IMG/VR virus record: IMGVR_UViG_2595698333_000001
Span: 1-64,000 of that record
Strand: one strand, 5' to 3'
Length of the DNA: 64,000 bases
Source of the DNA: a virus
Taxonomy: Duplodnaviria > Caudoviricetes
Part shown: one piece after another, positions 33,803 through 54,181 of the stretch
Position numbering within the stretch: the stretch's first letter is position 1
How the letters are laid out: each line of letters starts with the position of its first letter
The notes under the pieces: model-generated
What the model saw: the letters and a program-made list of their open reading frames with translations, nothing else
Database searches by the model: none
What the model was told of the DNA's origin: nothing
Position numbers and translations under genes: made by a program

Positions 33803-34963
33803 TTAGAACTCCAGTACGTTGTCGCTTTCGCCGTTGAACCAACCGTTCTCCCACCGCGTGCGAATCTGAAGCGCCCAGTGCATGACAGAGCGCTCGTATG
33901 CCTCGAAGTTACGGTTGCTGACGATGTCTGGGTCAACGAGGTGCGACCCAGCAACGTCGCGCGACCGTGGGAACGCTCCTGACTGATACAGGTCGCTGTC
34001 CTCGGGTTCGCCCATCACGTCGAGCGACGGGTTCTCGAACTTCCAGTCGTGTCCCGACCAGTAGCGATTGGCGACGTTCGCCATCTTGTTGATAGCGTTG
34101 CCGTCAATCGAGACGATGTCTTCACCGAACTCTCGTATCATGTCCATCTGCTTCGCAGGCGCACCTCCGAGCAGGTGCATATCCCGACCATGATAGTCGA
34201 TGAGCTCGCCTTCTGCCGCGCCGTAGGTCGTCGGGACGCTGTATCCCACGACCGCCCACTCAGGAACGTGGTCGACCTGGTTCGACCCGTGCGGGACGAC
34301 GATAACGTTCTCGCTGAACTGCGCGAGTTTCTCCGCGCGTTCGTTGATGAGCGAGATGTTCGAGTCGGGGTGAGACGGGTCGTGCTTCGTGTAGTCACCG
34401 CCGACGATGTACTCGGGTTCGTACTTCTTCGCCGCCTCAACGAGACGGTCGAACTCCGGGTTGTGCCAATCCATGTCTATGAAGTGGATTGGGATGCCAT
34501 CGACCGCGAGACGGTCGATATTGTCCAGTCGACCGCCCGTCTTGAACCCGTACTCGTAGGCGATTCTCATGTGCTCGTGCCCCGCAGTCGTGATAACGTC
34601 GAACGACAGTTCCTCCATCCAGTCAGGCGCCTCGTCGAACGGCGCGGGATTCTCCTCGTCGTACTCCCATCCACCGTCGTCGTATCGCACCATCGACTGG
34701 TTCGGCATCTTCCCCGCAGCGAGCGTAGCGTCGAACAGGTACTCATGCGCGGGTTGACGCTCGGGCAGGTCAACGTCCTCGACCTCAGAGACGTCGTCAG
34801 ATTCGTCGCTCTCGTCGTCGTCAACGAGGAGGTCCTCTTGCACCTCCTCATCCTCCACGCCTGGCACGTCGTCGTCTGCGTCGTCACGCGCGAAGTCAGC
34901 GGTCGACTCGTCACTGAACGGGTTGCTGTTGTCGTCGCCCGCTGTGAAGACCTCCTCTGCCAT
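33803..34963 (-). CDS. Putative DNA 7-deazaguanine transglycosylase (DpdA-like, TGT fold)
   Basis: MHLLGG...IVSIDGN matches the TGT/DpdA H-x-L-G and S-x-D motifs; directly downstream of folE in the que cluster. Confidence 0.7.
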   Translation of the reverse strand: MAEEVFTAGDDNSNPFSDESTADFARDDADDDVPGVEDEEVQEDLLVDDDESDESDDVSEVEDVDLPERQPAHEYLFDATLAAGKMPNQSMVRYDDGGWEYDEENPAPFDEAPDWMEELSFDVITTAGHEHMRIAYEYGFKTGGRLDNIDRLAVDGIPIHFIDMDWHNPEFDRLVEAAKKYEPEYIVGGDYTKHDPSHPDSNISLINERAEKLAQFSENVIVVPHGSNQVDHVPEWAVVGYSVPTTYGAAEGELIDYHGRDMHLLGGAPAKQMDMIREFGEDIVSIDGNAINKMANVANRYWSGHDWKFENPSLDVMGEPEDSDLYQSGAFPRSRDVAGSHLVDPDIVSNRNFEAYERSVMHWALQIRTRWENGWFNGESDNVLEF

Positions 34964-34965
34964 GT

Positions 34966-35595
34966 CTATTCCCCCGTCCTCAGCATCTGGAAGAACTCGT
35001 CCTTGATATGCGGTTCCTCACGCGCCTGACCACGAAGTGCTGTCGTTCGCGTCGCCGAGTGCGCTTCCTCGATGCCGCGGCACGACATACACTCGTGCTC
35101 CGCGCGGACGAACACCACGACTGCCTGCGGTTCGAGTTCTTCGTGGATGGCGTCTGCGATTTGGTTCGTCAGGCGCTCCTGCACCTGCGGGCGACGAGCG
35201 TATCCCCGCACGACTCGCGCCAGTTTCGACAGGCCCACGACTTCCTCGTCCGGGATATACCCGACGTGAGCGCGTCCTCGGAACGGGAGGAAGTGGTGCG
35301 CACACATGCTCTCCACCTGGATGTTGTCAACGATAACGAACTGGTCGCTGACCGACTCGTTGTCCTCGAACGTGCGCTCCAGATGCTCTCGCGGGTCCTG
35401 TCTCAACCCCTCGAACAGTTCGTAGGCGCGACTCTTCGCCAGGCGCGTCGGCGTTCCTTTCAGATGCTCGTTGTCGAGGTCGAGGCCCAGTGCCTCGATG
35501 AAGTCCTCCGCCGCCTGCACTGCGGCGTCGTAGTCGACCTCGGATGCTTTCATGTCGTCGTCCATCACGGATTCTCCTTCTCGTTGTTGTGACAT
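34966..35595 (-). CDS. folE: GTP cyclohydrolase I
   Basis: TPTRLAK, SMCAHHFLPF, GLSKLAR, PQVQERLT, HECMSCRG. Confidence 0.97.
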   Translation of the reverse strand: MSQQREGESVMDDDMKASEVDYDAAVQAAEDFIEALGLDLDNEHLKGTPTRLAKSRAYELFEGLRQDPREHLERTFEDNESVSDQFVIVDNIQVESMCAHHFLPFRGRAHVGYIPDEEVVGLSKLARVVRGYARRPQVQERLTNQIADAIHEELEPQAVVVFVRAEHECMSCRGIEEAHSATRTTALRGQAREEPHIKDEFFQMLRTGE

Positions 35596-35901
35596 AGTTT
35601 ACTTCGTCTATTCCTCGTCGTTCTCTGGCTCGGGAATCGGGATGGGTTCACCGTACCCGTGTTCTTCTACCTTCTCTCGCAACTCGTCTGCCTGCTCACC
35701 GCGCAGACCCGACATGGCGATGAAGGTGTCCAGTGCGCCTTCGTCGTCGAACTTGATGTACCGTTGTCCTTCGTCTTCAGTCATCGTCTCTCCGTTCTTC
35801 TTCGCAGTCTTCACAGTAGTTCCCCTTGTAGCGCATGGGCGTCCGGCCTCGACTCTCGCCCTTCTGAAACTCAGCACCGCAGTCGAGACACGTCGCCATC
35901 G

Positions 35902-36687
35902 TCACACCCCCGTCGCCTGGTCCCAGGTGGTGACTTGCAGTCGAGGAGTGAAGTCCCAGACGCGGTCCTTGCACAGTTCCGCGACGATGGGATACGTCTC
36001 CGCGAGTTGCTCGCGTGTCTGACCGGCAGGCATGAGCGAGATTCTGTCGTCGGGAATCTCGTACTCCTCGACGATGCTCAGAATCTCGTCCACGTCCTCC
36101 TCACGCGAGACGACGAACTTGAACTTGCTCGTCGGGTTGTTGGCGTGGAAGTCGAGCGCGTCGTCCTTGAGTCGCGTGTCCTCGTCCATCCCGCTGTTCG
36201 ACAGTTTGAGCGAGACGTTGTAGAGGTTGATGTACGGACGCAGTTGCTCGTTGGGAACGAGCGTACCGTTCGTCTCGACCTCGATGAACGGTTTGCCGCG
36301 CTTCCGACGACGGAGCATCTCCGCGACGAGTGCGACGATTTGGTCCTGCCGGGCGGGGAGGAGTGGTTCGCCTCCGGTGAGGATGAGATGGGCGCCATCA
36401 GGCGTCATCTTGTCCCACCACCCCTCATCCTCCCACGTATCGAGCAGGTCAGACGGCGTCGTTGTGAAGTCGGGGTCACGCCAGACGTCAATCGTATCGC
36501 AGACCCACGTCGCGTCACCCTTCGGTTCGTCACCGGATTCGTACTCCTCGAGGTCAGAATCCCACCCGCAGGTCAGGTTACACCCCGCGAAACGCAGGAA
36601 AACCGACGGGACACCTGCGTAAGGACCTTCACCTTGCACCGAGTAGAACTGCTCTGCCACGGGGAGTTGTGTGCTTACGTCGTTCAT
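35902..36687 (-). CDS. queE: 7-carboxy-7-deazaguanine synthase (radical SAM)
   Basis: [19 protein letters not shown]...CDT, LTGGEPL, VETNG. Confidence 0.95.
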
Positions 36688-36950
36688 GCTTTCTCCTCGT
36701 TAACGGCCATCGGTTCGTCCTCGATAGCGAAGTCGTCAGCAGGTTCTGCTTCTTCATCGAGGGCACTGTACTCGACTATCTCAACCGATGAGACACGACC
36801 TCGCTCGATACGTGCCTCAGTTCCTGGCATGTTACGTCGCTTCTCCTCCATGAACTCTCGGACCACGTTGTAGTGAACCGACCAGTCGGAACGCATGGTG
36901 AGGCCTGCACGTTCCCACACTACTCGATAGACAACGATGCTGTCAGTCAT
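36684..36950 (-). CDS. Hypothetical protein within the que cluster
   Basis: Coupled [13 protein letters not shown]. Confidence 0.55.
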
Positions 36951-37076
36951 CGTCGTCCTCCTCGACTTCCAGCACGTCAACGCGCACTACGTCGTCGCGC
37001 TCACGGAGTTCGTCGGCAACGTCCTCCGCGTCCTCCTCAGGACCGAGCGCGACGAGGAGCGAGTTGATGGATGCCA

Positions 37077-37538
37077 TTATTCCTCGTTGAAGGCGTCGGG
37101 GTACGCAGACGCCATGGCGTACTTCTGCGTCTCCTTGATTTCCACGCGGGCACGGTCGACGTTCTCGAACGTATCGACCAGTTCCTGAGCGACGACCTGA
37201 CTGACGAGTTCCGTCGTCGGGTCACCGTCGAACGTGTAGACCTCGCCCAGGACCTCCGTGACGAGCGACGTTCCTCCCTGCTCTTCGAGTGCACGCAGGA
37301 GCGGGTCGTCGTTGTTGAGGAGGATGGCGTGGTCGTACTTGTCGAAGACGCCCGAGACATCCTTGAAGTCGACCGCCATCTGATGCTCCTCGTTCGGGAC
37401 GCGCACCTTGAGACGCGCGTTCCACTCCATGTTGTGCCCGTGGATGTTGTTACATGCCCCGTCGTAGTGCATGAGACGGTGTGCGGTGCTTGTGCTGTGA
37501 CCTTCGACTTCGAGTGTACGGATGTTGTTGTTGCTCAT
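37077..37538 (-). CDS. queD: 6-carboxy-tetrahydropterin synthase
   Basis: AHRLMHYDGACNNIHGHN, VDF, YDH, PTTE, IKET. Confidence 0.95.
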   Translation of the reverse strand: MSNNNIRTLEVEGHSTSTAHRLMHYDGACNNIHGHNMEWNARLKVRVPNEEHQMAVDFKDVSGVFDKYDHAILLNNDDPLLRALEEQGGTSLVTEVLGEVYTFDGDPTTELVSQVVAQELVDTFENVDRARVEIKETQKYAMASAYPDAFNEE

Positions 37539-38299
37539 CGGTGACTGACCTCCTCCAGGATGTTCTTCCACTGTTCAGGACTGTTCCGCTTGACCGCGTC
37601 CGGCGTTCCGAACGGGTCGGTGACGCGGGCGAGGTGGAACGCCTCTCCTCGCTCGATACACGCGGGACACTGCCCGCACGGTTCGGGGTCCTCGTCCTCG
37701 ATTGCTTCGTAGCACGAGTACGTGTACTCCCACGGAACGCCGAGGTCCTCACCCTGCTGAATCACCTGAACCTTCTCGCGGTGCAGGAGCGGCGCACGCA
37801 GGGTGATACTCTCGTTGTCCGCGAGCGAGGCGTTGATGGCGTTCTCTGCTGCCGTGACGAACGGAGCGCGACAGTCAGGGTACGACTCCTCGTCGCCACC
37901 CTGCACGCCGATGTAGATGGCATCGCCGTCCGTCACGTCAGCAACGCCTGCGCCGGTCGCCAGGAGATGAAGGTTCCGCATGGGCACGTATCCCGTCGAG
38001 CGCCCATCGTCCTCCTCCAGGTCGCCGTCGTCGGTGACGAACGAGTCGCGGTCAGACGCGACACCACGCCCGAAGACCTCGAACACCGACTCGTAGTCGA
38101 TGGTCGTGACCGGGTGGACGCTGTGTCCCTCGTCACGGAAGTGAGTTGCGAGGTTGACCGCCTGCTGCTCCTCGAACTCCGCCGTCTGCTGACCGTAGTT
38201 GTAGTGCACCGGCTGCACCTCGTCGTAGTGTTTCACTGCGAGAGCGAGGCACGTAGCCGAGTCGATTCCTCCCGAAAGTAGTACGATTGCTTTCGTCAT
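37535..38299 (-). CDS. queC: 7-cyano-7-deazaguanine synthase
   Basis: LLSGGIDS, YVPMRN, YPDCR, TYSCY..CGQCPAC. Confidence 0.97.
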   Translation of the reverse strand: MTKAIVLLSGGIDSATCLALAVKHYDEVQPVHYNYGQQTAEFEEQQAVNLATHFRDEGHSVHPVTTIDYESVFEVFGRGVASDRDSFVTDDGDLEEDDGRSTGYVPMRNLHLLATGAGVADVTDGDAIYIGVQGGDEESYPDCRAPFVTAAENAINASLADNESITLRAPLLHREKVQVIQQGEDLGVPWEYTYSCYEAIEDEDPEPCGQCPACIERGEAFHLARVTDPFGTPDAVKRNSPEQWKNILEEVSHR

Positions 38300-38356
38300 C
38301 TGCGTTTGTGTGTATGACCGGAACTGGTTATCAAACTTTCCATCTATCGGAACCGT

Positions 38357-38791
38357 CTATTTTAGCTCGTGTCCGCAGTTCGGGCAGACGTCCGTATGCC
38401 AACCTTCCTGGTGTCGTGACGCATGGTCGGATGGTGTTTCGAGGGTAAGGTTCGACGGGCGGTTATCCCACTTGACTCCTGTCTTGTGGTGAACCTGATT
38501 CCCGCATACCGCCTCGAATCCGAACTGAGCGACAGCGACAAGCCGATGAACGAGGACGCTTTTCGTAGTCTTCTCGTCACCGTCCCATGCCTGCCACAGT
38601 TCGTATCCATCCTCGGTAGTCGAAAACGAAGCGCGGTTGACCTCACGTTGCTCACGCTCGATACCGAGTTTCTCCATCCAATTGTATATCGTCTGCGCGG
38701 TCACGTCATACCTATCTGCGATTTGACCACCGCTCAGGCCTTCTTCGCAGTAGAGACGACGCAGTGTTTCTTCGTCGCGGTATTCTGCCAT
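38357..38791 (-). CDS. HTH-HNH homing endonuclease
   Basis: VHRLVA..VHHKTGVKWDNRPSNL; paralog of the 30610 ORF. Confidence 0.88.
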   Translation of the reverse strand: MAEYRDEETLRRLYCEEGLSGGQIADRYDVTAQTIYNWMEKLGIEREQREVNRASFSTTEDGYELWQAWDGDEKTTKSVLVHRLVAVAQFGFEAVCGNQVHHKTGVKWDNRPSNLTLETPSDHASRHQEGWHTDVCPNCGHELK

Positions 38792-38851
38792 TACATCTAT
38801 GACTTCGAGTATAGATGTAAAGGTATGACGTGGAGACACGAGCATTTTCTG

Positions 38852-39483: not shown

Positions 39484-39487
39484 GGGA

Positions 39488-42443: not shown

Positions 42444-43697
42444 TTAGAAATCGAGGACTGACTGACTTTTCGACTCGTACTCTTGCACACTGGAGTCCTC
42501 TCCCGTCGCCCAATCCTCGTAGGCGTTCTTGTCGAGGTCGAGGACCTCAAGTTCGTCTCCCTCAAGACGATGCTGGAGGGCGATTTGCCGACGTTCCTCT
42601 ACGTCGAGGTCGCGTAGCAGGTCGAGCATGACATTCTTGAAGTGGATGAACGACCCGCTGAACTTGTATGTCGTCCCGTCGTAGTCCTTGAGCTTACGAT
42701 AGACGCGAGCAGTCGCGGTGTCTCCCGATGCTTTGTCTAGGCTGTGCCTGTACCACTCCGGGAACAGGCCCGGGATGTAACCCGAGTACGCTTCGGTCAA
42801 ACGCACCTCAGGAACCATCCGTGCGAGCGCACCCGCGTATTTCCAGTACCTGTAGTTTCGAGTCGACTGCGCACGTCCCAACCACTTATCGGCTCGTGCG
42901 AGGCAGTCGTAGGCGACTCCCGCCTCGAGACCTCGGAACTCCTTCGCCACCGCCTGGTCGAGCCAGATAACGAGTTGGTCGGGCGAGATGTTGTTGCCGG
43001 CGTACTTGTCGCCACCCAGGATTTCCGGGATGGCGTCGAACTCTCCTTCGTCCCACTCACGGTCGTCGAAACCGAGCGGAACATCGCTCTCCGCCATCAT
43101 CTGTAGGTCGTTGATGGCAGAACGCAGGTCAGGACGCTGAGCGAGGCGTTCCTCGTCATGCTCGTCCAGTTCGACGCCCTCCTTCTCAGCGATTTCTCGA
43201 ATCTTGGCGGCACGCGACCGCTTCCCGAGTTTGAAGTCCTCGGAGTTCACCCGATTCTTGATGCCGTCCGGCACGTCATACTCCTCGTTCGCCGTGAGGA
43301 TAATCGGATTCGCGGGAGAATCGAGAGCGTCGTACAGCGGTTGCTTGTTAGCAGCGTGATGCCACCCGTCCACCTCGTCGAGAAGGACGAGTTGACGATT
43401 ACCGTCCGCCGGCGACGCCTCGATGCTCGCCGCCATGTCGCGGATATCGTCCGTCTTCCGCGCAGACGAGGCGTTGATTTGATTGAGCGGCATCCCGAGC
43501 TGGTCAGAGACGACGTATGCCGTAGTCGTCTTGCCCGTGCCCGGAGGTCCGACGAGCAACTGCCCCTGGTCACCGGGTTCCCACTCGTCCGCCCACTCAC
43601 GGATACGCTTGAGAGCGGCGTTGTTTCCTTGCAGTTCTGAGAACGACTGCGGTCGGTGCTTTTCAACCCAACTGTTTGATGAGGTGTTCTGTGTCAT
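42444..43697 (-). CDS. rfcL: Replication factor C large subunit (clamp loader)
   Basis: WVEKHRP, GPPGTGKT, INASS, LDEVD, DLRSAINDLQ; C-terminal QSVLDF. Confidence 0.93.
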   Translation of the reverse strand: MTQNTSSNSWVEKHRPQSFSELQGNNAALKRIREWADEWEPGDQGQLLVGPPGTGKTTTAYVVSDQLGMPLNQINASSARKTDDIRDMAASIEASPADGNRQLVLLDEVDGWHHAANKQPLYDALDSPANPIILTANEEYDVPDGIKNRVNSEDFKLGKRSRAAKIREIAEKEGVELDEHDEERLAQRPDLRSAINDLQMMAESDVPLGFDDREWDEGEFDAIPEILGGDKYAGNNISPDQLVIWLDQAVAKEFRGLEAGVAYDCLARADKWLGRAQSTRNYRYWKYAGALARMVPEVRLTEAYSGYIPGLFPEWYRHSLDKASGDTATARVYRKLKDYDGTTYKFSGSFIHFKNVMLDLLRDLDVEERRQIALQHRLEGDELEVLDLDKNAYEDWATGEDSSVQEYESKSQSVLDF

Positions 43698-44133
43698 AGT
43701 GCCTCCGTCCTGCATTTCCGAGCATTTCTCCCACGTCCTCCCTGCACTGGACGAGTGAACGATACTCCTCTTCGGTACGCCCCTGCGACTGTGTATTCCC
43801 GTCCCAGTCCTCCTCGAGAATACGCTGTGCGATAGGGCGTTTTTCCCGCAAGTACGGTTCGACTTTCTCGATGACCACGAGCGCACTCTTGCCGTTGACC
43901 TGCGTATCGTCCCACTCGTCCTTGCCGTTTGAGAGAGTGTCGAAGTGGGACGAACAGTCGAGTTCGTTCACCAATTCTCGGAACAGGTCGTGGCGGGTCG
44001 AACCACCCGAAACCGTGATTTCCGGGGCGATGTAGAACCCGTGCTTCGCTCTGTCTACCTTCTGAACACCGACACGGATTGAACCGTCGGCGTCGATTAT
44101 CCCTGCTAAGTAGTGCAGGTCTTCGTCCTCCAT
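43663..44133 (-). CDS. Single-motif LAGLIDADG homing endonuclease
   Basis: YLAGIIDADGSI; PYLREKR. Confidence 0.9.
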   Translation of the reverse strand: MEDEDLHYLAGIIDADGSIRVGVQKVDRAKHGFYIAPEITVSGGSTRHDLFRELVNELDCSSHFDTLSNGKDEWDDTQVNGKSALVVIEKVEPYLREKRPIAQRILEEDWDGNTQSQGRTEEEYRSLVQCREDVGEMLGNAGRRHYDTEHLIKQLG

Positions 44134-44171: not shown

Positions 44172-45023
44172 TCAGAAATCCAATACATCTGTGGCTTGGG
44201 TGTCGAACGACGCTTCATCCGGGTTAAAATTCATCACTAGCCTTTCTACATTCTGAGAAGAATCCATGGAAGAAGAATACCGGCGTTTTTTCTCAGACAC
44301 AAACCAGGTTTTATCTATTTTCGTCTCGAGAACATCGGGCAGTTCATCATAGCTAATAACAACATCTCCATCTACATCAGTAATCAGCTCAGCGAACCGA
44401 GCGTGGTCAAAGTCATTTCCAACTGCGTAGTACTTATTGCCGGACCTATCACCCACGTATGGAGGGTCACAGTAGAACAAACAGTTTGTAGAATCGTACT
44501 TCGTCACGACCTCCTCAAAATCAAGATTCTCAATTATAACCTCCTTGAACCGGTCAGCTACACGAGAAACCTGTTCCTTTGACTTTTCGTACTTGTGGGT
44601 TGTTTCATCAGCAGGACTTCTTGCAGTCGTGTTAATACGAAACCCACCGTTAGGTTTCGCAGAAAACGAAGTCGTTTGAAGGTAGAAGAACCTACCTGCT
44701 CTTGCTACCTCATCGTCTGGCTCTTTACCATCCTCCAAATCTTGCGAGTATTCCTCGTATAGTTCACGAGAGTACGGTGTCATCTCGAGCCATTCTCGTA
44801 ACTCATCTCCACGGTCACGACAGACCTCGAAGTAGTTGACTACCCGCCCGTAAACATCGTTGTAAACCTCTATCGTAGAACGGGGTTTGTTGAACAGGAC
44901 AGATGCTGACCCTCCGAACGGTTCGACGTAACACTCATGTTCTGGGAAGTGACTGATTATCCACGGAGCGAGTGTCGTCTTTCCGCCTGGGTAGTTGACC
45001 GTCCCTGTGTTTTTCTTGGGCAT
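44172..45023 (-). CDS. D12-class DNA adenine methyltransferase
   Basis: YPGGK, YVEPFGGSASV, YND, YCDPPY; markedly lower GC. Confidence 0.93.
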   Translation of the reverse strand: MPKKNTGTVNYPGGKTTLAPWIISHFPEHECYVEPFGGSASVLFNKPRSTIEVYNDVYGRVVNYFEVCRDRGDELREWLEMTPYSRELYEEYSQDLEDGKEPDDEVARAGRFFYLQTTSFSAKPNGGFRINTTARSPADETTHKYEKSKEQVSRVADRFKEVIIENLDFEEVVTKYDSTNCLFYCDPPYVGDRSGNKYYAVGNDFDHARFAELITDVDGDVVISYDELPDVLETKIDKTWFVSEKKRRYSSSMDSSQNVERLVMNFNPDEASFDTQATDVLDF

Positions 45024-45025
45024 GG

Positions 45026-45523
45026 TCAGAAGTCGAGCGGGTCCTCCACGGTGTAGTCAGGTTCCAGTTCACGCTCGTACACCGTCATGCGATTGCCGCG
45101 GTCGGTGTAGTAGTAATCGACTGCCTGGAACCCGTTGTCCAACCAGAATTCTTCGAGGTCGGCGGTCGAGAGAACGTCAGCGACCATGACCTCCTTCCCA
45201 CGTTCCTCGGCGTACGCCACCGCCTCGTCGAGCAACTCTGAACCGTGCCCCTCGTGACGGTCCCGAGCAGCGACAGCGATGTTACGGAGACACGCTTCCT
45301 CACGGGACAGGATGTCTGACTCGGCCCAAACCATGCACGCGCCAGACACGCGGTCTCCGCGCAGGAAATACAGCAGACGCCTGTCCTCCCGACGGGCACA
45401 ACGCTCGACGTTCTCCCGTCGCACGAACCAGTACAGGTCCTGAGTGATTTCCACGTCGTCGAAGAACGCTTCTATCTCCTCGAGACGTTCATCGTCGGGT
45501 TCTGCGACCTTTATTTCTACCAT
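45026..45523 (-). CDS. GNAT-family acetyltransferase
   Basis: LRNIAVAARDRHEGHGSELL (motif A); FWLDNGF (motif B). Confidence 0.9.
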   Translation of the reverse strand: MVEIKVAEPDDERLEEIEAFFDDVEITQDLYWFVRRENVERCARREDRRLLYFLRGDRVSGACMVWAESDILSREEACLRNIAVAARDRHEGHGSELLDEAVAYAEERGKEVMVADVLSTADLEEFWLDNGFQAVDYYYTDRGNRMTVYERELEPDYTVEDPLDF

Positions 45524-48258
45524 GAGAGGACACCTCCCTGTCCGTCGTCGTCACCATCGTCGTCACTCCCGCCTGCGAACGGGTTGCTGTTGTCGTTGTC
45601 CTCCAGTTCGACACCCTGCGTCTGCGCACCTGCCGCCAGTTCGTCGAAGTCCCAACCGACCTCCTTGAGCATGGGACGTAGCGGACGGTCGAGCGTTTTC
45701 TCGATATGCTTCTCAGCGTCGAGCTCGAAGTCGTCCGGAATGTCGTCCCACCACTCCAACGCGAGAACGTCGGTGTTGGGTTTCATCGCCGGCGTCTTGC
45801 GGATGTAGTAAATCCACGGTTGGTCACCGTGCGACCAGTCGTATCCGAGATGCTCGTTCGAGTAGATGGCAGCACGCACCGACAGCGTAGGCGACGAGTA
45901 CGAGTCAATCGGGTCGTTGATGGTGCCCGGTTTTGCGATTTTCCGCAACTCGATATCTTGATTCCGGATGTCGTCGCACAGGCCTTTGATGTACTCGCTG
46001 ACCTGCTCGAACGACTGCGCGTCCAGAATCCGCTTGATGACTTCGGGCTGTGCCTCCTCAGTTAGTTCGGGCGAGTCGCTACGCTCGCTCTCGTACCCGG
46101 TGATGTCTGGTTTCGGGACGATGTTACCGTTCTCGTCCTTGATGTACTTGCCCTCCTTCCAGATGATGCCGCCCGCGTACCGCTTTTTCTTCCCATGCTG
46201 GAAGAAGCGACGGTACAGTTTCTCAAACTCGAACGCCCACGCATGATTCTCGTCGTCGGGTAGGTTGTGCGGGAGCGTCGAGAGGTCGAGGAACGGGTGG
46301 TCATCACCGAGACCTATGTCGTCTGCTGCACGCCCGACCTCCTCGTTGATACGACGCTCGACCTCCTTCCCGCGTTCGACTACCTCCTGCATGGCGTCCT
46401 GCTCGTCCATGTCGTCGAGTTCTCCTGGGTCAGCGAGTGACACCATCACCGAGTCGGTGTCCCCGTAGATGACCTCGAACCCGAGTTCTTGGCAGATTTC
46501 TACGCCTGTCCACAGGATGAAGCGCGACAGTCCCGTGATGGTGTCGCCCAGTTCGGGAGACGCCAGGCGGTAATATTTGTTGTTGCTGACGCCGAAGAAG
46601 GAGTTCATAATGACCTTCACCGCACGCTGCTTGTGGTCCCACACCTGATACATCGGAGTGTCCGGGTCATACCGATTCCGGTTGTCCTTCATCTCCTCGC
46701 GCTCGCTGAAGAGCAACTTGAGGTACTTGGGCATGATGCCCTCCTGGTCGAGTTTGAGACCTTGACCCTTCTTGGCGTCGAACTCCAGATGTTCGCGCTC
46801 GATGTTACCGCCGAAGTCGTCCTCTTTCACCGGCATCCACGGGACGACAACGTCTGCCTCCTGGTTGTCGTCGGTCATCGTCTCCTTCGAGATGTTCGCC
46901 GTGATAATCGAGGACGGGTAGAGTGACTTCAGGTCAATCACTCCGACCCACTCGCTGATGCCGGACGACGGGTTCAGGACGAGACCTCCTGCCGCGTTGT
47001 CTACCTCGACACCCTCCGCGTTCGGGAGAATCTCGTTGTCGGTGCGCCGGGACATGACGAACCCGTCCACGAGACGCATGGCGGAGAACGTGTCGTAAAT
47101 CGGGACACCGGTGAGGTCCGACAGTTGGTAGAAGAACCCGTGGATGTCCGCCATGTCGTCGAGAGCGACGAGCAACTGCGTGTCTATGATGTTATACGCT
47201 GTGAGGCGACTACGATTCTTCTCGTACCCTTCGCGGATGTTGATGTCTTCGACCTTGCCGACGCCCAGTTCCTCCTGAGCAACGTAGTCGAGCGCCTTCG
47301 ACCGCCAGTCGCTGAACACCATCTGGTCGCAGTACGCCCTCATCATGTCGAACCCTGGCAACCCGTCAATCCGCGCGACGGTCGTCTCCAAGTCGTTCCG
47401 GTAGTTGTGGGTCAACCCACCGATGTCCGACATACGCCAGCGGTCGACTCCGTTGACCTTCTCCATGCGATTGAGGAGGTATCGGTGGTCGAAGTCCTCC
47501 CAATTCCATCCCGACAGGAGGTCTGGACGCACGTCCTCGATGTACGAAAGGAACGAGTTGAGGAGCGACGATTCCGAGTCAGCAATCGTCATGTCTATGT
47601 CCGCGTTGACGAACTGCGACGCCAACTCGTGCCCGTTCCAGTGGTCGCCCAGGTAGTGTTTCACGTCCTTCCCGTCCACGTCACGGTCAGGGTCGAGAAC
47701 CCAGACGTCGTACTTCTCCTCCCGTGTGTCGTAGGCGGATATCATTATGACCTCACCGGGCGCTTCTTCGGTGAAGTCCTGGAATCCCATCTCGTAGTCG
47801 GGCAGTGCCTCGATGTCCGCCATGACCACGCGAGGAGTGATGGAGTCGACTTCCTCCTCGTCAATATCCGTCTCGACCTCGGAAATATCGCAGTGTTTCC
47901 TATCCGGCACGCGGATGTAACCCGACAACCCGTAGTCGACCGAGACGCGACGAGTGAACGGGATGTCCGCCTCGTAGGTCACCGAGAAGTCGTCACGGAT
48001 ACTGCTGACGTGCTTCGGGAGTTTCGTCACGACCTTCTTGAGAGGTCGTCCGTCGTACCCTTCGTACCCGTCCTCCGTGCGTACCACGCAGTCCTGCGAG
48101 GCACTCTCGTGAGGCGGGACGAAACAGTACGGTTCTGTACCACCGATTATCGTTAGGTTTCGTTCATCGTCTTCGTCGCGTCCGACGACTCTGACGACTA
48201 CTTCACCGTCGTTCTCCTTGTAGTCGAGGTCCGTTACACGGACGAGTTTATCGCTCAT
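45517..48258 (-). CDS. polB: Family B DNA polymerase
   Basis: DIE exo I, GWNWEDFD, DLKSLYPS, KVIMNSFFG, YGDTDS, KKRY; no intein seen. Confidence 0.98.
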   Translation of the reverse strand: MSDKLVRVTDLDYKENDGEVVVRVVGRDEDDERNLTIIGGTEPYCFVPPHESASQDCVVRTEDGYEGYDGRPLKKVVTKLPKHVSSIRDDFSVTYEADIPFTRRVSVDYGLSGYIRVPDRKHCDISEVETDIDEEEVDSITPRVVMADIEALPDYEMGFQDFTEEAPGEVIMISAYDTREEKYDVWVLDPDRDVDGKDVKHYLGDHWNGHELASQFVNADIDMTIADSESSLLNSFLSYIEDVRPDLLSGWNWEDFDHRYLLNRMEKVNGVDRWRMSDIGGLTHNYRNDLETTVARIDGLPGFDMMRAYCDQMVFSDWRSKALDYVAQEELGVGKVEDINIREGYEKNRSRLTAYNIIDTQLLVALDDMADIHGFFYQLSDLTGVPIYDTFSAMRLVDGFVMSRRTDNEILPNAEGVEVDNAAGGLVLNPSSGISEWVGVIDLKSLYPSSIITANISKETMTDDNQEADVVVPWMPVKEDDFGGNIEREHLEFDAKKGQGLKLDQEGIMPKYLKLLFSEREEMKDNRNRYDPDTPMYQVWDHKQRAVKVIMNSFFGVSNNKYYRLASPELGDTITGLSRFILWTGVEICQELGFEVIYGDTDSVMVSLADPGELDDMDEQDAMQEVVERGKEVERRINEEVGRAADDIGLGDDHPFLDLSTLPHNLPDDENHAWAFEFEKLYRRFFQHGKKKRYAGGIIWKEGKYIKDENGNIVPKPDITGYESERSDSPELTEEAQPEVIKRILDAQSFEQVSEYIKGLCDDIRNQDIELRKIAKPGTINDPIDSYSSPTLSVRAAIYSNEHLGYDWSHGDQPWIYYIRKTPAMKPNTDVLALEWWDDIPDDFELDAEKHIEKTLDRPLRPMLKEVGWDFDELAAGAQTQGVELEDNDNSNPFAGGSDDDGDDDGQGGVLSW

Positions 48259-48279: not shown

Positions 48280-48576
48280 TCAGTAATCAAGTACGTCATC
48301 CACGTCAACTTCGTCTATGGCTTCGGGGTCGGGACACTCGATTCTACCTGTCTCGACGAGTCGATGGTGCGTCTTGCACAGGGTGATGAGGTTGTCCCGG
48401 GTGTGGGCGTTGTCAGGGTCGTCGAACTTCTTGACCTTGACGACGTGGTGAACGTGCAGGGGTTCGACGATGCTCTGCCCCTTCCCGCAGATTCGGCACT
48501 CGTAGTTGTCGCGTTCGAGCGCCTCCTCTCGTTTCTCTTGCCACGTTTCTCCGTAGTCACGTCGTTCGTATCCCAT
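48280..48576 (-). CDS. HNH endonuclease
   Basis: RDNYECRICG..HVHH..NLITLCKTHH; tail DDVLDY. Confidence 0.9.
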   Translation of the reverse strand: MGYERRDYGETWQEKREEALERDNYECRICGKGQSIVEPLHVHHVVKVKKFDDPDNAHTRDNLITLCKTHHRLVETGRIECPDPEAIDEVDVDDVLDY

Positions 48577-48579
48577 GCC

Positions 48580-49383
48580 TCAGTATTTCTCGTAACTGAC
48601 GTTCGCCATGCTCGTGTCCTGTGCCGGGCAGACGTACTCGTACTCACAGAACGAGCAGTGACCGCCTGTCTTCGCCGGGAACTCTCCCGAACCCATCGCT
48701 TGCAGGAGGGCGCGTGCGTACTGCTTCATCTGCCCCCACTGCTCCTCGTCGGGATACCGCACGCGAACGTTACCGTCACCGAGGTAGACGAACTTGACGT
48801 ACTCCGGGTGCTCTCCGTACTTGTTGAGGTACGCGCCTGCGTACACCATCCCCTGAATCAGTTCGTCGCGTTTCCGGTAGTCAGCGATTTCTCCGTCGCT
48901 GTTCTTCGCGTCCCCCGTCTTCCAGTCGACCAGTCCTTTGTCGGTGACGATGTCCATCTTCGCGTTGAAGTCGGTGTTGACCTCGCCGCCGACATGATAC
49001 TGATGCTCGACCTCGATGCCGCGCAGTTCCTCGCCTTCGAGATGCTCGCTGGCAACGAACTTCGCCGCGTTGTCACAGCAGTCGAGGCCATCGTCGTACA
49101 TCCGTTCCGAGATGTCCGGGTCCTCGACGGTGCGATAGTGATGCTTGAACTTGTGCGCGAGCGTCCCGGCGTCTCGAATCTCTGGGTGCTCCAGCAGGAC
49201 CTCCTCGATGGAGTTGTGAACTGCCGTCCCCTTCTCGAGATACCCGGCACTCGGTTTCTTCCTATGCTCGTCCTTCGCGTAGTCGAACCACCACGACAGC
49301 GGACACTGCGCGAATTTCTTAACCCTCGTCGCTGAGAGTTTGTCGTCGAAAAGTTTGTCTGGTACAGGTCGTGTTTCAGTCAT
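48580..49383 (-). CDS. Cas4/RecB-like PD-(D/E)xK exonuclease (4Fe-4S)
   Basis: CPLSW, GTAVH, KMD..DWKTG, QGMVY, CSFCEYEYVCP. Confidence 0.9.
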   Translation of the reverse strand: MTETRPVPDKLFDDKLSATRVKKFAQCPLSWWFDYAKDEHRKKPSAGYLEKGTAVHNSIEEVLLEHPEIRDAGTLAHKFKHHYRTVEDPDISERMYDDGLDCCDNAAKFVASEHLEGEELRGIEVEHQYHVGGEVNTDFNAKMDIVTDKGLVDWKTGDAKNSDGEIADYRKRDELIQGMVYAGAYLNKYGEHPEYVKFVYLGDGNVRVRYPDEEQWGQMKQYARALLQAMGSGEFPAKTGGHCSFCEYEYVCPAQDTSMANVSYEKY

Positions 49384-49693
49384 TCTCGCTCCACCTCATC
49401 TTTGCTCGTTCCTCCGCAGCAGCGTCCTTGAGCGTGCGACCTCCTGCGGCGTCCATGTTCGTACCGTACTTCTCCATGAGGTTGACGTTCTCGGACAAGC
49501 CAAGCGAGGTGTCAATCTTGGACGTCCAGTCGGTCACCTCGTAGTACACCGCCGCGCCCTTGACGACCTGCCACTGAATCAGCGTCAGGTTGTCGTCATG
49601 CTGGTTGCCCATCGGGAGACGACGTATCTCGTCGTCGGTCAACCGCGCCTGACCGATGGGAATCTCGTGTCCACAGCAGGGGCACGTCGGCAT
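49376..49693 (-). CDS. Hypothetical protein
   Basis: N-terminal CPCCG; coupled. Confidence 0.65.
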   Translation of the reverse strand: MPTCPCCGHEIPIGQARLTDDEIRRLPMGNQHDDNLTLIQWQVVKGAAVYYEVTDWTSKIDTSLGLSENVNLMEKYGTNMDAAGGRTLKDAAAEERAKMRWSEND

Positions 49694-49695
49694 GG

Positions 49696-49884
49696 TTACT
49701 GGATATCGTCGTCGAACGTGTCCATCTCGTCGTACATCTCGTCTATCTCATCGAGTTTCGCCATCGCTTGCTCCTCGGTCAACTCGTGGACTTTGACGAG
49801 ATGCTTCGCTGCCTCCTTCCGAGAGTCGAAGTCGGTGCCGTGGTCGAAGCAGTAGTACCGACTGAAGTCACCGGACGGTTTCAT
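49696..49884 (-). CDS. Small C2H2-like protein
   Basis: CFDH...HLVKVH. Confidence 0.6.
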   Translation of the reverse strand: MKPSGDFSRYYCFDHGTDFDSRKEAAKHLVKVHELTEEQAMAKLDEIDEMYDEMDTFDDDIQ

Positions 49885-50864
49885 CGCTCGTATCCCTCCA
49901 GCGAAAGGTACCGTGCGACGTGCAGGTCCGCGAGGAGCGAGTGGAACTGGACGTGCGGGTTCGCACCGCGCATGGCACGCCAGTTCGTCTCCGCCACCTT
50001 GTCGAGCATCTTCGCCTTCACGTCACCGGGTAGGTCCTGCTTCTTGATGACTCGCAGGAACGAGTCACACAGTTGGTTCGCCGGGACGCCTTCCTTGAGC
50101 ACCTCTACGTCGAGTTGCCGCATGGCGTCGTCGAGGTCGCCTTCGACTGCGGTGTTGACGATTTGCTCCACGAGCGCGTCGTCCACGGTCGAGACGACGA
50201 CGTTGACCCCGTTCGCGTCAATCTCACCCTCGTACACCGCCGCCTGCATGCTGTTGATGAGTTTGCGAGCGTCCCCGTCTGCCGCGTTCACCATCAGCGT
50301 GAGCGTGTCGTCCTCGATGGCGATGCCCTCTTCCTCGGCGACGTTCTTCCCGATTTGGAACAGGTCGTCGTCCGTCAGCGGCGAGATGCTGAACGGGGCA
50401 CACCGCGACTGGATGGGGCCGATAATCTGCGACAGGTAGTTGCAGGACAGGAAGAAGCGCGTCACGTCCGCGTGGTCCTCCATGATACGTCGCAGCGCTG
50501 TCTGAGCATCTTTCGTGAGCTGGTCAGCCTCATCGAGGAAGACGATTTTGTACTGATGGTCGCCAATCGTCCCCTGCACCGCGTAGTTCTTCACCTTGTC
50601 GCGGATGGTGTCAATCCCACGCTCGTCGGAGGCGTTCAGTTCGAGGATGTTATTCCGCCAGTTGTCCACCCCGTACTTCTCCTTGGCGAACGCCTGGATG
50701 ATTGCCGTCTTGCCGATTCCCTGCTTCCCGGCGAAGACGACGTGAGGCACGTCTTCGGTATCGAGGAACTTCCTCATGCGCTTTACTACTTCTTCGTGCC
50801 CGACTATGTCGTCGAGCGTCTGAGGGCGGTACTTCTCGACCCAGATTTTATCGCTGACACTCAT
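49881..50864 (-). CDS. rfcS: Replication factor C small subunit
   Basis: WVEKYRP, GKQGIGKT, LNASDERG, LDEAD, IQSRC. Confidence 0.96.
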   Translation of the reverse strand: MSVSDKIWVEKYRPQTLDDIVGHEEVVKRMRKFLDTEDVPHVVFAGKQGIGKTAIIQAFAKEKYGVDNWRNNILELNASDERGIDTIRDKVKNYAVQGTIGDHQYKIVFLDEADQLTKDAQTALRRIMEDHADVTRFFLSCNYLSQIIGPIQSRCAPFSISPLTDDDLFQIGKNVAEEEGIAIEDDTLTLMVNAADGDARKLINSMQAAVYEGEIDANGVNVVVSTVDDALVEQIVNTAVEGDLDDAMRQLDVEVLKEGVPANQLCDSFLRVIKKQDLPGDVKAKMLDKVAETNWRAMRGANPHVQFHSLLADLHVARYLSLEGYER

Positions 50865-50930
50865 GCTTCGTATGTTGTTGACCGCAAAGGGTTATCAGTT
50901 GTTTCGTCGAGAGAACGGGTCGTTCTTAGC

Positions 50931-51113
50931 TCAGAACGATTCCGTCTCGGAGTGGTCGTACTCGTCGTTCTCCCGCATGATACGCGCCAGGTTCTCGAAC
51001 GCCTCGGGCAGCGTATCGCCGTATGCCTTGATTTCCACCTTCTGCCTGTCGAGGTACGCCACACCGACCTCGCGCTCGTTCATCGGACTTCGGATGATTT
51101 CTATGTGTTCCAT
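50931..51113 (-). CDS. Solo HicB-like small protein
   Basis: AYGDTLPEAFENL resembles the HicB N-terminal motif. Confidence 0.5.
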   Translation of the reverse strand: MEHIEIIRSPMNEREVGVAYLDRQKVEIKAYGDTLPEAFENLARIMRENDEYDHSETESF

Positions 51114-51114
51114 G

Positions 51115-51702
51115 TCAGAGTTCCTCCTCGACGATAGCGAGGACCTCCTCGCGCACGTCCTTCTTCGACTGTTCTCCATCGACCACCCGGTACGTCGGGT
51201 CGTCCACGTCACGGTTGATGAGATACTCGTAGTTCTCCTTGACCTGTTCGAGCGTCTCGCGCTTCTCGTACTTCTCCTCCTTGTCGGCGCGTTCGAGCGC
51301 GGTGTCCACCGACACGTCGAGGTAGATGGTCAGGTCAGGCATGAATTTCCACGGCGCCATCACGTCGCTCATCCACTCGACGGGATTCTCCAGTTCGTCC
51401 TGCAACTGCACAGGTTGGTACGCGAGAGTCGAGTCGGAGAATCGGTCACTGACGACGAGTTGACCGTTCTCGACTTTCGGTTTGATGAACTCTTCTATGT
51501 GGTAGTGCCTGTCCGCCATGAACAGGAAGAAATCGGTGAACGCCGGCGTCTCGCTGCGTAGCGCCTTGCGCACCTGCTTCCCCGTCCAGAACTCGGACGG
51601 CTCGCACGTCGTCTCAGCGTCGAACTTCCGCTTGATTGCTTTGACGACGAGTGTCTTGCCCGCTCCGTCGAGTCCTTCGACGGTGATGAAGTGCCCGGGC
51701 AT
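51115..51702 (-). CDS. tmk: Thymidylate kinase
   Basis: EGLDGAGKT, ADR, SDRFSDSTLAYQ, PDLTIYLD. Confidence 0.95.
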   Translation of the reverse strand: MPGHFITVEGLDGAGKTLVVKAIKRKFDAETTCEPSEFWTGKQVRKALRSETPAFTDFFLFMADRHYHIEEFIKPKVENGQLVVSDRFSDSTLAYQPVQLQDELENPVEWMSDVMAPWKFMPDLTIYLDVSVDTALERADKEEKYEKRETLEQVKENYEYLINRDVDDPTYRVVDGEQSKKDVREEVLAIVEEEL

Positions 51703-51705
51703 GAT

Positions 51706-52158
51706 TCAGAACCCGAGCACGTCGTCGCCTGTGACCTCAGACGCAGGCTCTCCGAGGTTGTCGAGGAGTCGTTCTCCTTCCTCGGTGATGTAGTAGTACG
51801 AGCGTCGTCCTTCCTTGCGCTCGTTCGCGTACCCTGCCTTGAGCAGTGCCGCCGCAGCGGGACCTGGAGCGAACGAGTCACCCGCGGTCAGGTCGAGGAT
51901 GTCCACACTACTGAGCATCCTCTCCGGCGCGTTCGCCTCGTGCTTGCTCAGGAGGTACAGGTACCGGTGAGTCGGGTCGTTGTCCTTCACCGGAAGGTCG
52001 GGGTTGTACGAGGTCTCCTCAGCATCGCTGAGGTCCCGTGGTTCGGGGTCACCCTCGCGTTCCAGAACGCGCAGGTCACCGTCGAAGTCGGGGTTGTCGT
52101 ACAGGAACGATACCGCTTCGTCCGTCGTCTCGAAGGTTTTGACTTGTTCTTGAGTCAT
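51706..52158 (-). CDS. Winged-helix protein
   Basis: ALLKAGY..RSYYYITEEGERLL; tail DDVLGF. Confidence 0.75.
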   Translation of the reverse strand: MTQEQVKTFETTDEAVSFLYDNPDFDGDLRVLEREGDPEPRDLSDAEETSYNPDLPVKDNDPTHRYLYLLSKHEANAPERMLSSVDILDLTAGDSFAPGPAAAALLKAGYANERKEGRRSYYYITEEGERLLDNLGEPASEVTGDDVLGF

Positions 52159-52160
52159 GG

Positions 52161-53309
52161 TTACTCTATCCACTCCGCTTTGCCACCCGACCAACCGAAG
52201 GTCGAGCACTCCTCGGGTTCCTCCTTTCGCGTGCAGAGACCCAGCGACTGAATCGACTGGCACGACATATCGGAGTACCCGCGGTTGTGTATCTGATTGA
52301 GGAACTTGCGTGTCTTCTTCCGGTCGGCGTCAACCCACCCGAGCGACATGAACATCTCCTCAATCTCCTGCTTGGTGAATCCCGCGTTGAACAGGAGCAC
52401 CGCGCAGTTGAACCGAACCATGTGGTGCGGGTTCGGCTGTACGATACGCTCGTACATACAGGGCATCTGGAGTAGTTCTTTCAGCATCTGCAAGATACCC
52501 TGTCGTTCGTAATTCTCAACGTCAATCTCGACCTCGACCTCACCTCGAACCGTCGCCCGTTCCTCCAGGTAGTCATCGTACACCTGCATTTCCGGACGCT
52601 CCTGTTCGGGCAGAGGAATCTGCCTCGGTGACTCCGACGCCTGCATGAGGCGCTCGGGAGTGACCGTCTGCAACTCGTGACGAGTCATCGGGATGGTGTA
52701 GAGGTTACACGCCATCGTATGCGTGTCCTCGGTAATCGACTCGCCTCGCTCGGAGTCAACGTACACCCGTCGCACGTTCGGTATGCGCAGGATACGCTGA
52801 ACGTCACCGATGAGTTGGATGTCTAGTGTGTTCAGGTCGAGAATGTCGAGGTAGCGTCTAACCGTCGTAGCGAGGTGCTGACGCGCCTGCAACTGTTCCT
52901 GGTGTAGAAGGTGGATGTGTATCCCGAACCCGGAGAAAACGCCTACGACCGGTATCTGTTCGCGTTCTGCTTGCTTGGCGATTTTCCGAGCGTCCTCGCA
53001 CACCTCACCCAGAACCTCGTCCGCGAGGTCCTCGTCCTCACGCATGAGCATGACCTTCTCATCGTCACGCTCGGTTCGTGGGAACGCTGCTTCTTTCATG
53101 GGTGAGTCGAGGTCAATCGAGATTTTGTCCGATACGACGCCGCCACCTTCCGTCAGGTCGAAGTGCGAGATGGTCGCGTACAGGTTCCGTTCTCCCTCGC
53201 ACTCCTCGATGACTGCGTCCAGTTCACTCTCGCTATGGACGGGCCACTGAACCGGGTTACCGACCCGACGTGGGAACTTGCCGTACAGCAGTTTTTGAAC
53301 CGGGTCCAT
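52161..53309 (-). CDS. Archaeo-eukaryotic primase with fused PriL-like Fe-S domain
   Basis: IDLD, FSGFGIHIH, D..RILRIPN; MPC..HHMVR..SC..LC..C. Confidence 0.88.
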   Translation of the reverse strand: MDPVQKLLYGKFPRRVGNPVQWPVHSESELDAVIEECEGERNLYATISHFDLTEGGGVVSDKISIDLDSPMKEAAFPRTERDDEKVMLMREDEDLADEVLGEVCEDARKIAKQAEREQIPVVGVFSGFGIHIHLLHQEQLQARQHLATTVRRYLDILDLNTLDIQLIGDVQRILRIPNVRRVYVDSERGESITEDTHTMACNLYTIPMTRHELQTVTPERLMQASESPRQIPLPEQERPEMQVYDDYLEERATVRGEVEVEIDVENYERQGILQMLKELLQMPCMYERIVQPNPHHMVRFNCAVLLFNAGFTKQEIEEMFMSLGWVDADRKKTRKFLNQIHNRGYSDMSCQSIQSLGLCTRKEEPEECSTFGWSGGKAEWIE

Positions 53310-53323
53310 AGCGAGTCAGGCGC

Positions 53324-54181
53324 TTAGTTCTTGTTGACCGGACCGATAACGTTCCGGAGCACCTGACCTTCGTACTCGTCCTGGACGACGCAGATGGGGA
53401 GGTCCTCCTGCGTCTCGATACGGACACCGCCCGAGAGCGTGCCGAAGAGTTCCTCGAACCCCTGATTGTACTCGTTCGACAGGTCGGGACCTTCGACGCT
53501 ATCCGCGTTGAGCGCACCCCACGCGGCGTTCCGTCGCTCGTCCTTCCCGACACTCAGGTACAGTTCACCGTCCTGGATGGTAATCGGGTAGAACTTCGTG
53601 TCGTCGTCGTCGTTGACGATGTCCACGATACGGTTGATTTCTCGAACGTCCGTCTCGATGGTCGCCTCCATCGGTTCGCCGTCGCCGGTCAGGAACGAGT
53701 GCGTGTCCTGGTCGAACCGACCCACGGCGTCGAGCGGAACCTCGTCGAGGTTCGACTCGCTCGCGGGCAGCATGACGCGCGTCTGAATCGCTCCGTGGAA
53801 CTGGAGCGCGTGACAGAGGCGGTCGTCCTCGTTGCCGAGGAGCGTCAGTTCGACCGTACTGCTCGGGTCGTCCTGCGCGTAGTTGAGATACGTGAGGAAG
53901 TCCTCGACGTTGATAATCGCCTCCGCTGTCCCGTTGTTGTCCTCCACGAGGAGGTCCTGGTCGACCTCCGTGGAGTCGAGGAACCCGGCGCCGAACGTCG
54001 AGTACGAGATGACGCTGTTGTTCTGCTTGGACGCGAGGAACCGCGCCTCACCGCCGCCCACGTTGACGTACACCTCGGAGTGCACCGCGTCACCCGAAGA
54101 AGCCTTCAGAGACGCCTTCTTAATCATCTGTTCGAGTCGATTCGCCTTCGCCGTGATGGTCGCTTTCGTGACTTCAGTCAT
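53324..54181 (-). CDS. DNA sliding clamp (PCNA-like)
   Basis: Two-domain beta/alpha repeat pattern ending LPI..VIGP; replication context with RFC. Confidence 0.75.
   Translation of the reverse strand: MTEVTKATITAKANRLEQMIKKASLKASSGDAVHSEVYVNVGGGEARFLASKQNNSVISYSTFGAGFLDSTEVDQDLLVEDNNGTAEAIINVEDFLTYLNYAQDDPSSTVELTLLGNEDDRLCHALQFHGAIQTRVMLPASESNLDEVPLDAVGRFDQDTHSFLTGDGEPMEATIETDVREINRIVDIVNDDDDTKFYPITIQDGELYLSVGKDERRNAAWGALNADSVEGPDLSNEYNQGFEELFGTLSGGVRIETQEDLPICVVQDEYEGQVLRNVIGPVNKN

Follow-up and report, generated by a model that had tools for sequence, protein, structure and literature searches.

DNMT1, a eukaryotic cytosine methyltransferase, couples maintenance methylation to replication through a canonical PCNA-interacting peptide (PIP) box at its N terminus, which tethers it to the cellular sliding clamp PCNA. 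In bacteriophage T4, the proteins gp43, gp55, and gp33 carry interchangeable hydrophobic-acidic clamp epitopes at their C termini, each behind a divergent linker (PMC2988020), and in Haloferax a PIP box of the form QxxLxxFx is found in PolB1, PolD, the large RFC subunit, Fen1, and RNase H2 (PMC7776575 and PMC2737543), lying at the C terminus in the case of the large RFC subunit and PolB1 (PMC7776575). Here we describe a C-terminal peptide of related appearance in a haloarchaeal virus. The window, by which we mean the whole 64,000-nucleotide stretch of DNA analysed (positions 1 to 64,000 of IMG/VR record IMGVR_UViG_2595698333_000001), contains a replication module in which seven unrelated proteins, all encoded on the minus strand between 33.8 and 52.3 kb, share one C-terminal tail of five residues. 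The tail is likely a truncated, Q-less variant of the PIP box, shared between the replisome and the DNA-modifying enzymes in a virus with a clamp gene of its own. The initial annotation of this stretch had drawn the comparison with archaeal PolB and RFC-L and with the T4 proteins; the Haloferax data bear it out and the T4 parallel holds.

The tail has the form [polar/acidic]-[V/P]-[L/M]-[D/E/G/S]-[F/Y/W]-COOH and is preceded by a variable, mostly acidic linker. The genes that end in it are as follows.

33803-34963, minus strand: predicted DNA guanine transglycosylase of the DpdA4 type (DUF6610), 386 aa; PF20314 at E 2.7e-56 over the full profile (positions 1-198 of 198); tail ESDNVLEF.
42444-43886, minus strand: RFC-L, clamp-loader large subunit, an open reading frame (ORF) of 480 aa; Pfam AAA and Rad17; tail KSQSVLDF.
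44172-45023, minus strand: D12-class N6-adenine DNA methyltransferase, 283 aa; PF02086 at E 2.8e-28; tail QATDVLDF.
45026-45523, minus strand: GNAT acetyltransferase, 165 aa; Pfam Acetyltransf_1/10/7, E 7.4e-07; tail VEDPLDF.
45517-48258, minus strand: family B DNA polymerase (PolB), 913 aa; DNA_pol_B at E 2.4e-32, plus exo1; acidic linker and tail GQGGVLSW.
48280-48576, minus strand: small HNH nuclease, 98 aa; Pfam HNH at E 9.9e-09; tail DVDDVLDY.
51706-52158, minus strand (ORF to 52263): protein of unknown family, 150 aa; phrog_26211 (unknown function); tail TGDDVLGF.

The set spans six different Pfam families, plus one protein without a Pfam family. A check of the ORFs of the whole genome found all seven endings as the initial annotation had read them, and six of its seven protein labels agree with Pfam. 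The seventh label, a winged helix-turn-helix for the 51706 protein, did not hold up to the same degree: there is no Pfam match at E<=0.01, and the leads are weak ones, namely winged-helix models at Pfam E values of 0.02-0.07 and an Atlas score of 0.88 to PhiH1-repressor-like clusters, where the bar is 0.9. An AlphaFold2 (AF2) model of this protein has a helix-hairpin-helix pattern, but at a mean predicted local distance difference test (pLDDT) score of 47 it is unusable; the protein is possibly a winged helix-turn-helix. Its true start is probably at 52158, giving 150 aa.

Of the 897 six-frame ORFs in the whole genome that reach 40 aa, 7 end in [VP]Lx[FYW]; when the cutoff is lowered to 20 aa and the motif broadened to [VP][LM]x[FYW], 7 of 1412 qualify, and these are exactly the genes listed above. 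These counts are independent of the gene set used for the composition test, a heuristic selection of 147 genes (29,641 aa) made from GC content at third codon positions (GC3) and acidity, to which two tail genes (the low-GC3 methylase and the overlapping 51706 ORF) were added by hand. Across the 147 genes the four-residue motif occurs 23 times, seven of them exactly C-terminal, and the stricter five-residue motif [DNSG][VP]L[DEGS][FYW] is C-terminal in seven of its eight occurrences. The number of tails expected from composition is 0.097, and the binomial probability of finding seven or more is 1.3e-11 for a motif that was chosen post hoc. When no motif is specified, 34 gene pairs agree in at least three of their last four residues, with the tail genes the most connected, while 1000 shuffles of the terminal columns averaged 15.1 pairs and never exceeded 28. 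The enrichment among C termini by which the initial annotation proposed to check its claim is thus present under both the binomial and the shuffle test, and chance is excluded as the origin of the shared ending. Synonymous differences separate the tail codons of different genes and of different genomes, each of the three stop codons occurs, and the DNA downstream is unrelated; together with the variable linkers, these features show that selection acts on the peptide and not on the DNA.

The source genome is a single contig, 102,319 bp long and bounded by direct terminal repeats, and the window covers its first 64 kb. The window PolB shares 88.5% identity with the PolB of Halovirus HCTV-5, and the figure for HCTV-1 and HCTV-16 is 82.6-82.7%; all three are Haloarcula siphoviruses of the family Druskaviridae. 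The GC content of the window is about 59%, and the encoded proteins have the acidic character to be expected of a haloarchaeal virus. Conservation of the tail in orthologs, which the initial annotation had also made a test of its proposal, was found in these relatives. Eight of 864 ORFs of at least 40 aa carry it in the first 100 kb of HCTV-5, comprising the seven orthologs and a second D12 methylase (gene 48, GC3 0.37, ending NVLDF), and six of 797 such ORFs do so in HCTV-1; the window methylase has no match in HCTV-1 or HCTV-16 at E<=1e-20. The two methylases of HCTV-5 both end in [DN]VLDF despite an identity of 37% over 224 aa and C-terminal regions that cannot be aligned, a pattern that suggests an independent appearance of the tail. 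The RFC-L tail is retained in HCTV-5 and HCTV-1, and the GNAT tail is identical in HCTV-5, HCTV-1, and the locus L006. HNH orthologs end in DDVLDY (HCTV-5) and DDPLDY (HCTV-1), and orthologs of the 51706 protein in DDVLGF (HCTV-5, L005, and L007), ESVLEF (HCTV-1), and DDVLRF (L006). Among twelve close DpdA4 sequences (54-100% identity, the window protein included), eleven have an aromatic tail V[LM]x(x)[FY], with endings such as NVLEF, DVLDF, DVLGF, NVMQY, and, in three, NVLEDF, and the residues ahead of the tail vary. The HCTV-5 ortholog of the window RFC-L is annotated as RFC large subunit; from its length of 414 aa, the true start of the window protein probably lies near 43688. The HNH ortholog of HCTV-5 (L001 48586-49197) is 203 aa long; it ends in the same tail and carries an additional C2H2 zinc finger at its N terminus.

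The tail extends to a more distant genome, the IMG/VR contig G001 (110,711 bp), which has replication and structural modules in common with the window at roughly 30-65% protein identity (38% for the clamp described below, 49% for RFC-L, and 47.5% for PolB by BLASTP). G001 has four tails: NNPLEW on PolB, TDVLDY on RFC-L, LNPMEY on an 82-aa zinc-ribbon-like protein, and QDPLEW on a 102-aa protein of unknown family. The two small proteins are lineage-specific, and G001 has no orthologs of DpdA4, the methylase, GNAT, or HNH. The linker of its PolB is 18 residues longer than that of the window and unrelated in sequence, and the tip is nonetheless retained. C-terminal alignments of PolB, the methyltransferase, RFC-L, and DpdA4 all contain the divergent linker of variable length that characterizes the T4 epitopes, a likeness drawn from the published description of those epitopes. 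In the window, the PolB stop codon overlaps the start codon of GNAT; the overlap of PolB stop and next-gene start reads TCATGGTAG in the window (45517-45523) and GAATGGTAG in G001 (72062-72070).

When the sampling of viruses with the clamp family described below was widened, alignment A1 returned five loci from the metagenome collection, mostly short; query P0036 returned G001 and L010 again, queries P0040 and P0180 had no match in viral contigs, and the PolB alignment (A5) returned four loci, three on contigs already sampled and the fourth a short fragment (L031). In the metagenome contig L014, where the clamp has 54% identity to that of the window, an ORF directly downstream of the clamp (11004-11381) ends in SDNVLGFIKDG; the L014 flanks contain no clean tails, and SDNVLGF there carries four extra residues.

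The strongest argument that the tail may bind a clamp is its positional equivalence to PIP boxes. Like the PIP box (Qxx[LIM]xx[FY][FY]), it stands at the extreme C terminus of the polymerase and RFC-L behind a flexible linker, in most cases it places an aliphatic residue three positions ahead of an aromatic one, and it occupies the same site in homologous PolBs and methyltransferases. All four of the other haloviral PolBs compared (from Hafunaviridae and Halomagnusviridae) end in a canonical PIP box of the host type, QxGLxxFx: QSGLGAFI, QSGLAQFM, QTGLGAFV, and QTGLAAFC. The methyltransferase was compared with its nearest sequences, a set of 120 that includes the window protein (P0178-P0297). 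Five carry the druskavirus tail, and 53 have a canonical PIP box, Qxx[LIVM]xx[FYW], in their last 16 residues, where the background is 6 of 1947 internal 16-residue windows; a further 52 have Qxx[LIVMF], and 10 have none of these motifs. Q..[LIVMF] falls within the last 20 residues of 107 of the 120, with the Q-anchored consensus Q-[SAQT]-[TGS]-L-x-[DAE]-[FY]. Several close relatives end in QSSVDDF or QTSVGDF, so that the druskavirus TDVLDF resembles the same peptide minus its Q. HCTV-2, whose host species is that of HCTV-5, has a methylase ending in QASLGGYANE and no match to the window-type clamp. Unlike the PIP box, the tail has no conserved glutamine, has a single aromatic residue that must be the last, allows proline at the aliphatic position, and occurs only together with a clamp too divergent for the Pfam PCNA models.

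The host PIP consensus used in these comparisons is that of PMC7776575 and PMC2737543 and not one derived from Haloarcula host proteins; a scan of genome contigs with the viral ribonucleotide reductase returned bacterial loci only. Measured against this consensus, the called genes of the present genome have no C-terminal host-type PIP box except the QGGVLSW of PolB, and the Q of that peptide is coincidental, being S in HCTV-5 and D in HCTV-1. The near-universal PIP-like ending of haloarchaeal D12 methyltransferases suggests that clamp-coupled adenine methylation may be widespread in haloarchaea and their viruses; we found no paper on such coupling in these enzymes in the open-access literature. 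Some of these haloarchaeal D12 methyltransferases carry cellular names in the databases (Natrialba, Halorhabdus), and L041 386-1201 belongs to the same group.

The clamp and the remaining loader subunit are encoded beside the tailed genes, and neither has the tail itself.

53324-54181, minus strand: divergent sliding clamp with a PCNA fold, 285 aa, no tail; fold from AF2 and Foldseek.
49881-50864, minus strand: RFC-S, clamp-loader small subunit, 327 aa; Pfam Rep_fac_C and AAA; no tail, ends LEGYER.

The PCNA-like gene that the initial annotation had placed at 53324-54181 is real: the 285-aa reading agrees with the start of its homologs, and its predicted structure folds as PCNA. The AF2 model, built with 16 homologs, has a mean pLDDT of 75, near 90 in the N-terminal half and 55-70 in the C-terminal half. 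In a Foldseek search of the PDB, every one of the 46 matches listed (ranks 1-50) is a sliding clamp, most of them PCNA and a few of them 9-1-1 chains, and these listed matches have a probability of 1.00, E values no higher than 3e-12, and a target-normalised template-modelling (TM) score of up to 0.75; the PCNA matches include those of African swine fever virus, Sulfolobus, yeast, and Archaeoglobus. The protein has no Pfam match at E<=0.01 and no relevant match by phmmer against the PDB. The Pfam PCNA model PF00705 is absent from a scan of the whole genome; the same model finds PCNA in four archaea among the control genomes. A profile search with the clamp recovered 144 representative homologs, which points to a sizeable family of divergent clamps. 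The identification of this clamp is not in itself new, since 'sliding clamp PCNA' is already the deposited name of the HCTV-16 ortholog and a distant homolog was found in HVTV-1 (Kazlauskas et al. 2016, PMC4889955). RFC-L and RFC-S flank the region, and clamp and loader lie beside the genes of the proposed clients. Near the C terminus of the clamp, in the segment R-H-V-L-G/A-P, residue R276 is conserved at 90% or more in 105 clamp-family sequences whose mean column identity is 22%; we speculate that R276 could recognise the carboxylate at the end of a bound C-terminal peptide.

From the motif, its conservation, and its equivalence in position to PIP boxes, we lean toward the interpretation that the tail binds a clamp. 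That PolB and RFC-L are C-terminal PCNA binders in archaea supports this interpretation. Should the tail indeed bind a clamp, we consider the viral clamp its likely partner, the preference over the host clamp being drawn solely from the co-occurrence of tail and viral clamp. The tail would then be a PIP box minus its glutamine that ends at the first aromatic residue, with V or P at position 4 and the aromatic at position 7. The polymerase and RFC-L would be tethered by it to the virus's own divergent PCNA (53324-54181), which would serve as a docking hub, and the same tether would hold an accessory set consisting of DpdA4, the Dam-type methyltransferase, GNAT, the small HNH nuclease, and the possible DNA-binding protein encoded at 51706. 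The modifying enzymes would move along fresh duplex on clamps loaded at viral forks, with preQ1 insertion and adenine methylation trailing replication closely, and a tether of this kind would explain how a base-exchange enzyme gains access to new duplex at high density.

Several observations weigh against clamp binding as we have described it. The Q at position 1 of the PIP box is not conserved in the tails, and the six tails other than that of PolB have no Q there; none has the second aromatic or hydrophobic residue of position 8, every one stopping at the first aromatic. The V...F/Y/W spacing fits PIP positions 4 and 7 in most tails, but several have proline at position 4 (GNAT, the HNH protein of HCTV-1, and three tails of G001), which is unusual for a PIP box, and the VLEDF of three DpdA4 orthologs indicates that the spacing is not fixed. 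One of the twelve close DpdA4 sequences ends in NVLDA, without an aromatic residue. The terminal tryptophan codon of PolB shares its TG with the downstream ATG, so the final W of this tail is partly constrained. The DUF6610 proteins of three hafunaviruses, Serpecor1, HRTV-5, and Hardygib1 (305 aa; L038, L039, L040 638-1552), have a conserved end EYRGESPAYL, and this ESPAYL ending is neither PIP box nor tail; seven more distant DUF6610 homologs (P0028-P0034) likewise have neither, and DpdA4 is therefore presumed to be a clamp client in this virus family alone. Finally, the co-occurrence of tail and clamp is known from two lineages only, Druskaviridae and the type represented by G001 and L010, and the wider sampling added no third.

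Two other interpretations deserve consideration, and we regard each as improbable. According to the first, the viral enzymes join toolbelts of the host type, because their tail, a degenerate PIP box, binds the host PCNA or both clamps. V-L-x-aromatic does fit PIP positions 4-7, the close methyltransferase relatives ending in QSSVDDF differ by a Q, the window PolB reads QGGVLSW by chance, and the pocket of Haloferax PCNA is described as shallower and as tolerating a non-aromatic last residue (PMC2737543). Set against these points, the haloviruses examined that do not have this clamp family, one of them on the same host species, retain a full QxGLxxFx or QxxLxxY, whereas every genome in which the truncated tail is seen also has a gene for the divergent clamp; moreover, the Q of PolB is replaced in both HCTV-5 and HCTV-1, and the other called genes have no PIP box of the host type.

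The second interpretation, to which we give similarly little credence, holds that the tail is read by some other hub (a helicase, a primase, or a single-strand-binding protein), by a PDZ-like domain, or by a protease for which it is a degron that times the proteins. The acidic, aromatic-ended tails of T7 gp2.5 and gp4 bind T7 polymerase, and an acidic linker followed by hydrophobic-x-aromatic-COOH is a generic shape for a C-terminal ligand. The hafunavirus DpdA4 homologs, which are without any clamp motif, could also be accommodated in this way. However, the polymerase and RFC-L that carry the tail are classical clamp clients, relatives have a PIP box at the same position, and neither a PDZ nor a protease gene was noticed in the scan, which was confined to the module proteins. 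The last alternative, that the shared ending is due to chance or to a conserved DNA signal at gene ends (a terminator, a promoter, or a ribosome site), can draw on the overlap of the last PolB codons with the ATG of the next gene but is refuted by a binomial probability near 1e-11, the shuffle test, the C-terminal position of the strict motif in seven of eight cases, the synonymous codon changes, three stop codons, and unrelated downstream DNA, and the conservation of the tail in G001 at 38-50% protein identity.

This virus and T4 are alike in having their own clamp and loader and in placing one short hydrophobic-acidic C-terminal peptide on the polymerase and on non-polymerase proteins. If the tail binds the viral clamp, the extra clients differ, being transcription factors in T4 and, here, DNA-modifying or DNA-cutting enzymes and one possible DNA-binding protein. 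The proposed tethering of the window methyltransferase likewise resembles that of DNMT1, in that a DNA methyltransferase would be held to a sliding clamp by a PIP-type peptide; unlike DNMT1, the viral system would comprise a Dam-type adenine methylase and a base-exchange enzyme, and the peptide is a C-terminal, non-canonical tail. We found no published description of the shared tail in open-access full text, supplements lying outside the search, and it may already have appeared in print.

The base-exchange enzyme belongs to a group with a recent literature. DUF6610 has been assigned to a new DpdA4 subfamily for which insertion was argued to follow replication; its transglycosylase activity was predicted by HHpred, and the authors report no success in testing DpdA4 in E. 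coli (Hutinet et al. 2023, PMC10516641). The product of 33803-34963 is like that subfamily in having a full-length DUF6610 and in its location, the adjoining genes being of the FolE, QueE, QueD, QueC, and QueF types according to the annotation of HCTV-5 and HCTV-1. The tail adds a proposed mechanism of recruitment to the DpdA4 account of PMC10516641, in whose main text the words 'PCNA', 'clamp', and 'replisome' do not occur; 'PCNA', 'clamp', and 'PIP' are likewise absent from the main text of Liu et al. 2021. In HVTV-1, a member of the Druskaviridae, dPreQ1 is present at about 30% of guanines, and all restriction enzymes tested were resisted (PMC6884629). Were the proposal correct, the modifying enzymes would ride the replication clamp, which would provide a mechanism for the replacement of some 30% of guanines by preQ1 and for methylation fast enough to evade host restriction. 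To our knowledge, DpdA4 would then be the first DNA base-exchange enzyme recruited by a sliding clamp, and the system as a whole would be an example of a private clamp-and-peptide pair evolved by a virus.

A more ambitious form of this proposal, which we offer tentatively and think somewhat doubtful when all of its parts are taken jointly, is that the divergent PCNA and a private Q-less tail form an orthogonal clamp code, a closed network from which host PIP proteins are possibly excluded. The plug-ins of such a network would be DpdA4 for dPreQ1 insertion, low-GC methylases that gain the tail, and the nuclease; GNAT would work with DpdA4, as fusions of GNAT to DUF6610 suggest, and the small DNA-binding protein could couple late transcription to replication in the manner of T4 gp33 and gp55. 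The fusions are found in five protein clusters (P0028-P0032), in which an N-terminal GNAT is joined to a C-terminal DUF6610 without a tail, and they link the window GNAT and DpdA4, separately encoded and tailed, to one pathway. The similarity between the fused and the window GNAT is weak (22% identity, E 0.002). The initial annotation had counted acetylation of nascent DNA among the modifications coupled to replication, and for this role of GNAT we found no support. GC3 in the tail-bearing methylases is 0.49 in the window and 0.46 and 0.37 in HCTV-5, with neighbours at about 0.7-0.8, and at about 0.75 around the window gene; the low values fit a recent acquisition of these genes, and the tail is present nonetheless. 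HCTV-5 (L001) 24224-25132 is listed with the window methylase among these low-GC3, tail-bearing methylases.

Three further endings lie outside the tail set. A 438-aa protein encoded at 11780-13096 ends in RVLDEF and was considered as an eighth tail, but it was rejected for want of a linker and because the HCTV-1 ortholog ends in RVLEEM. This protein combines two helix-turn-helix domains (HTH_24, E 6.4e-11) with a C-terminal half that resembles a coiled coil. The CobT/vWA protein, ending in NEVMF, and CobS, ending in IDKVF, have conserved C termini that fall outside the tail motif. At the two genome termini, small identical ORFs are found at 82-210 and 101816-101944, as fits the direct terminal repeats.

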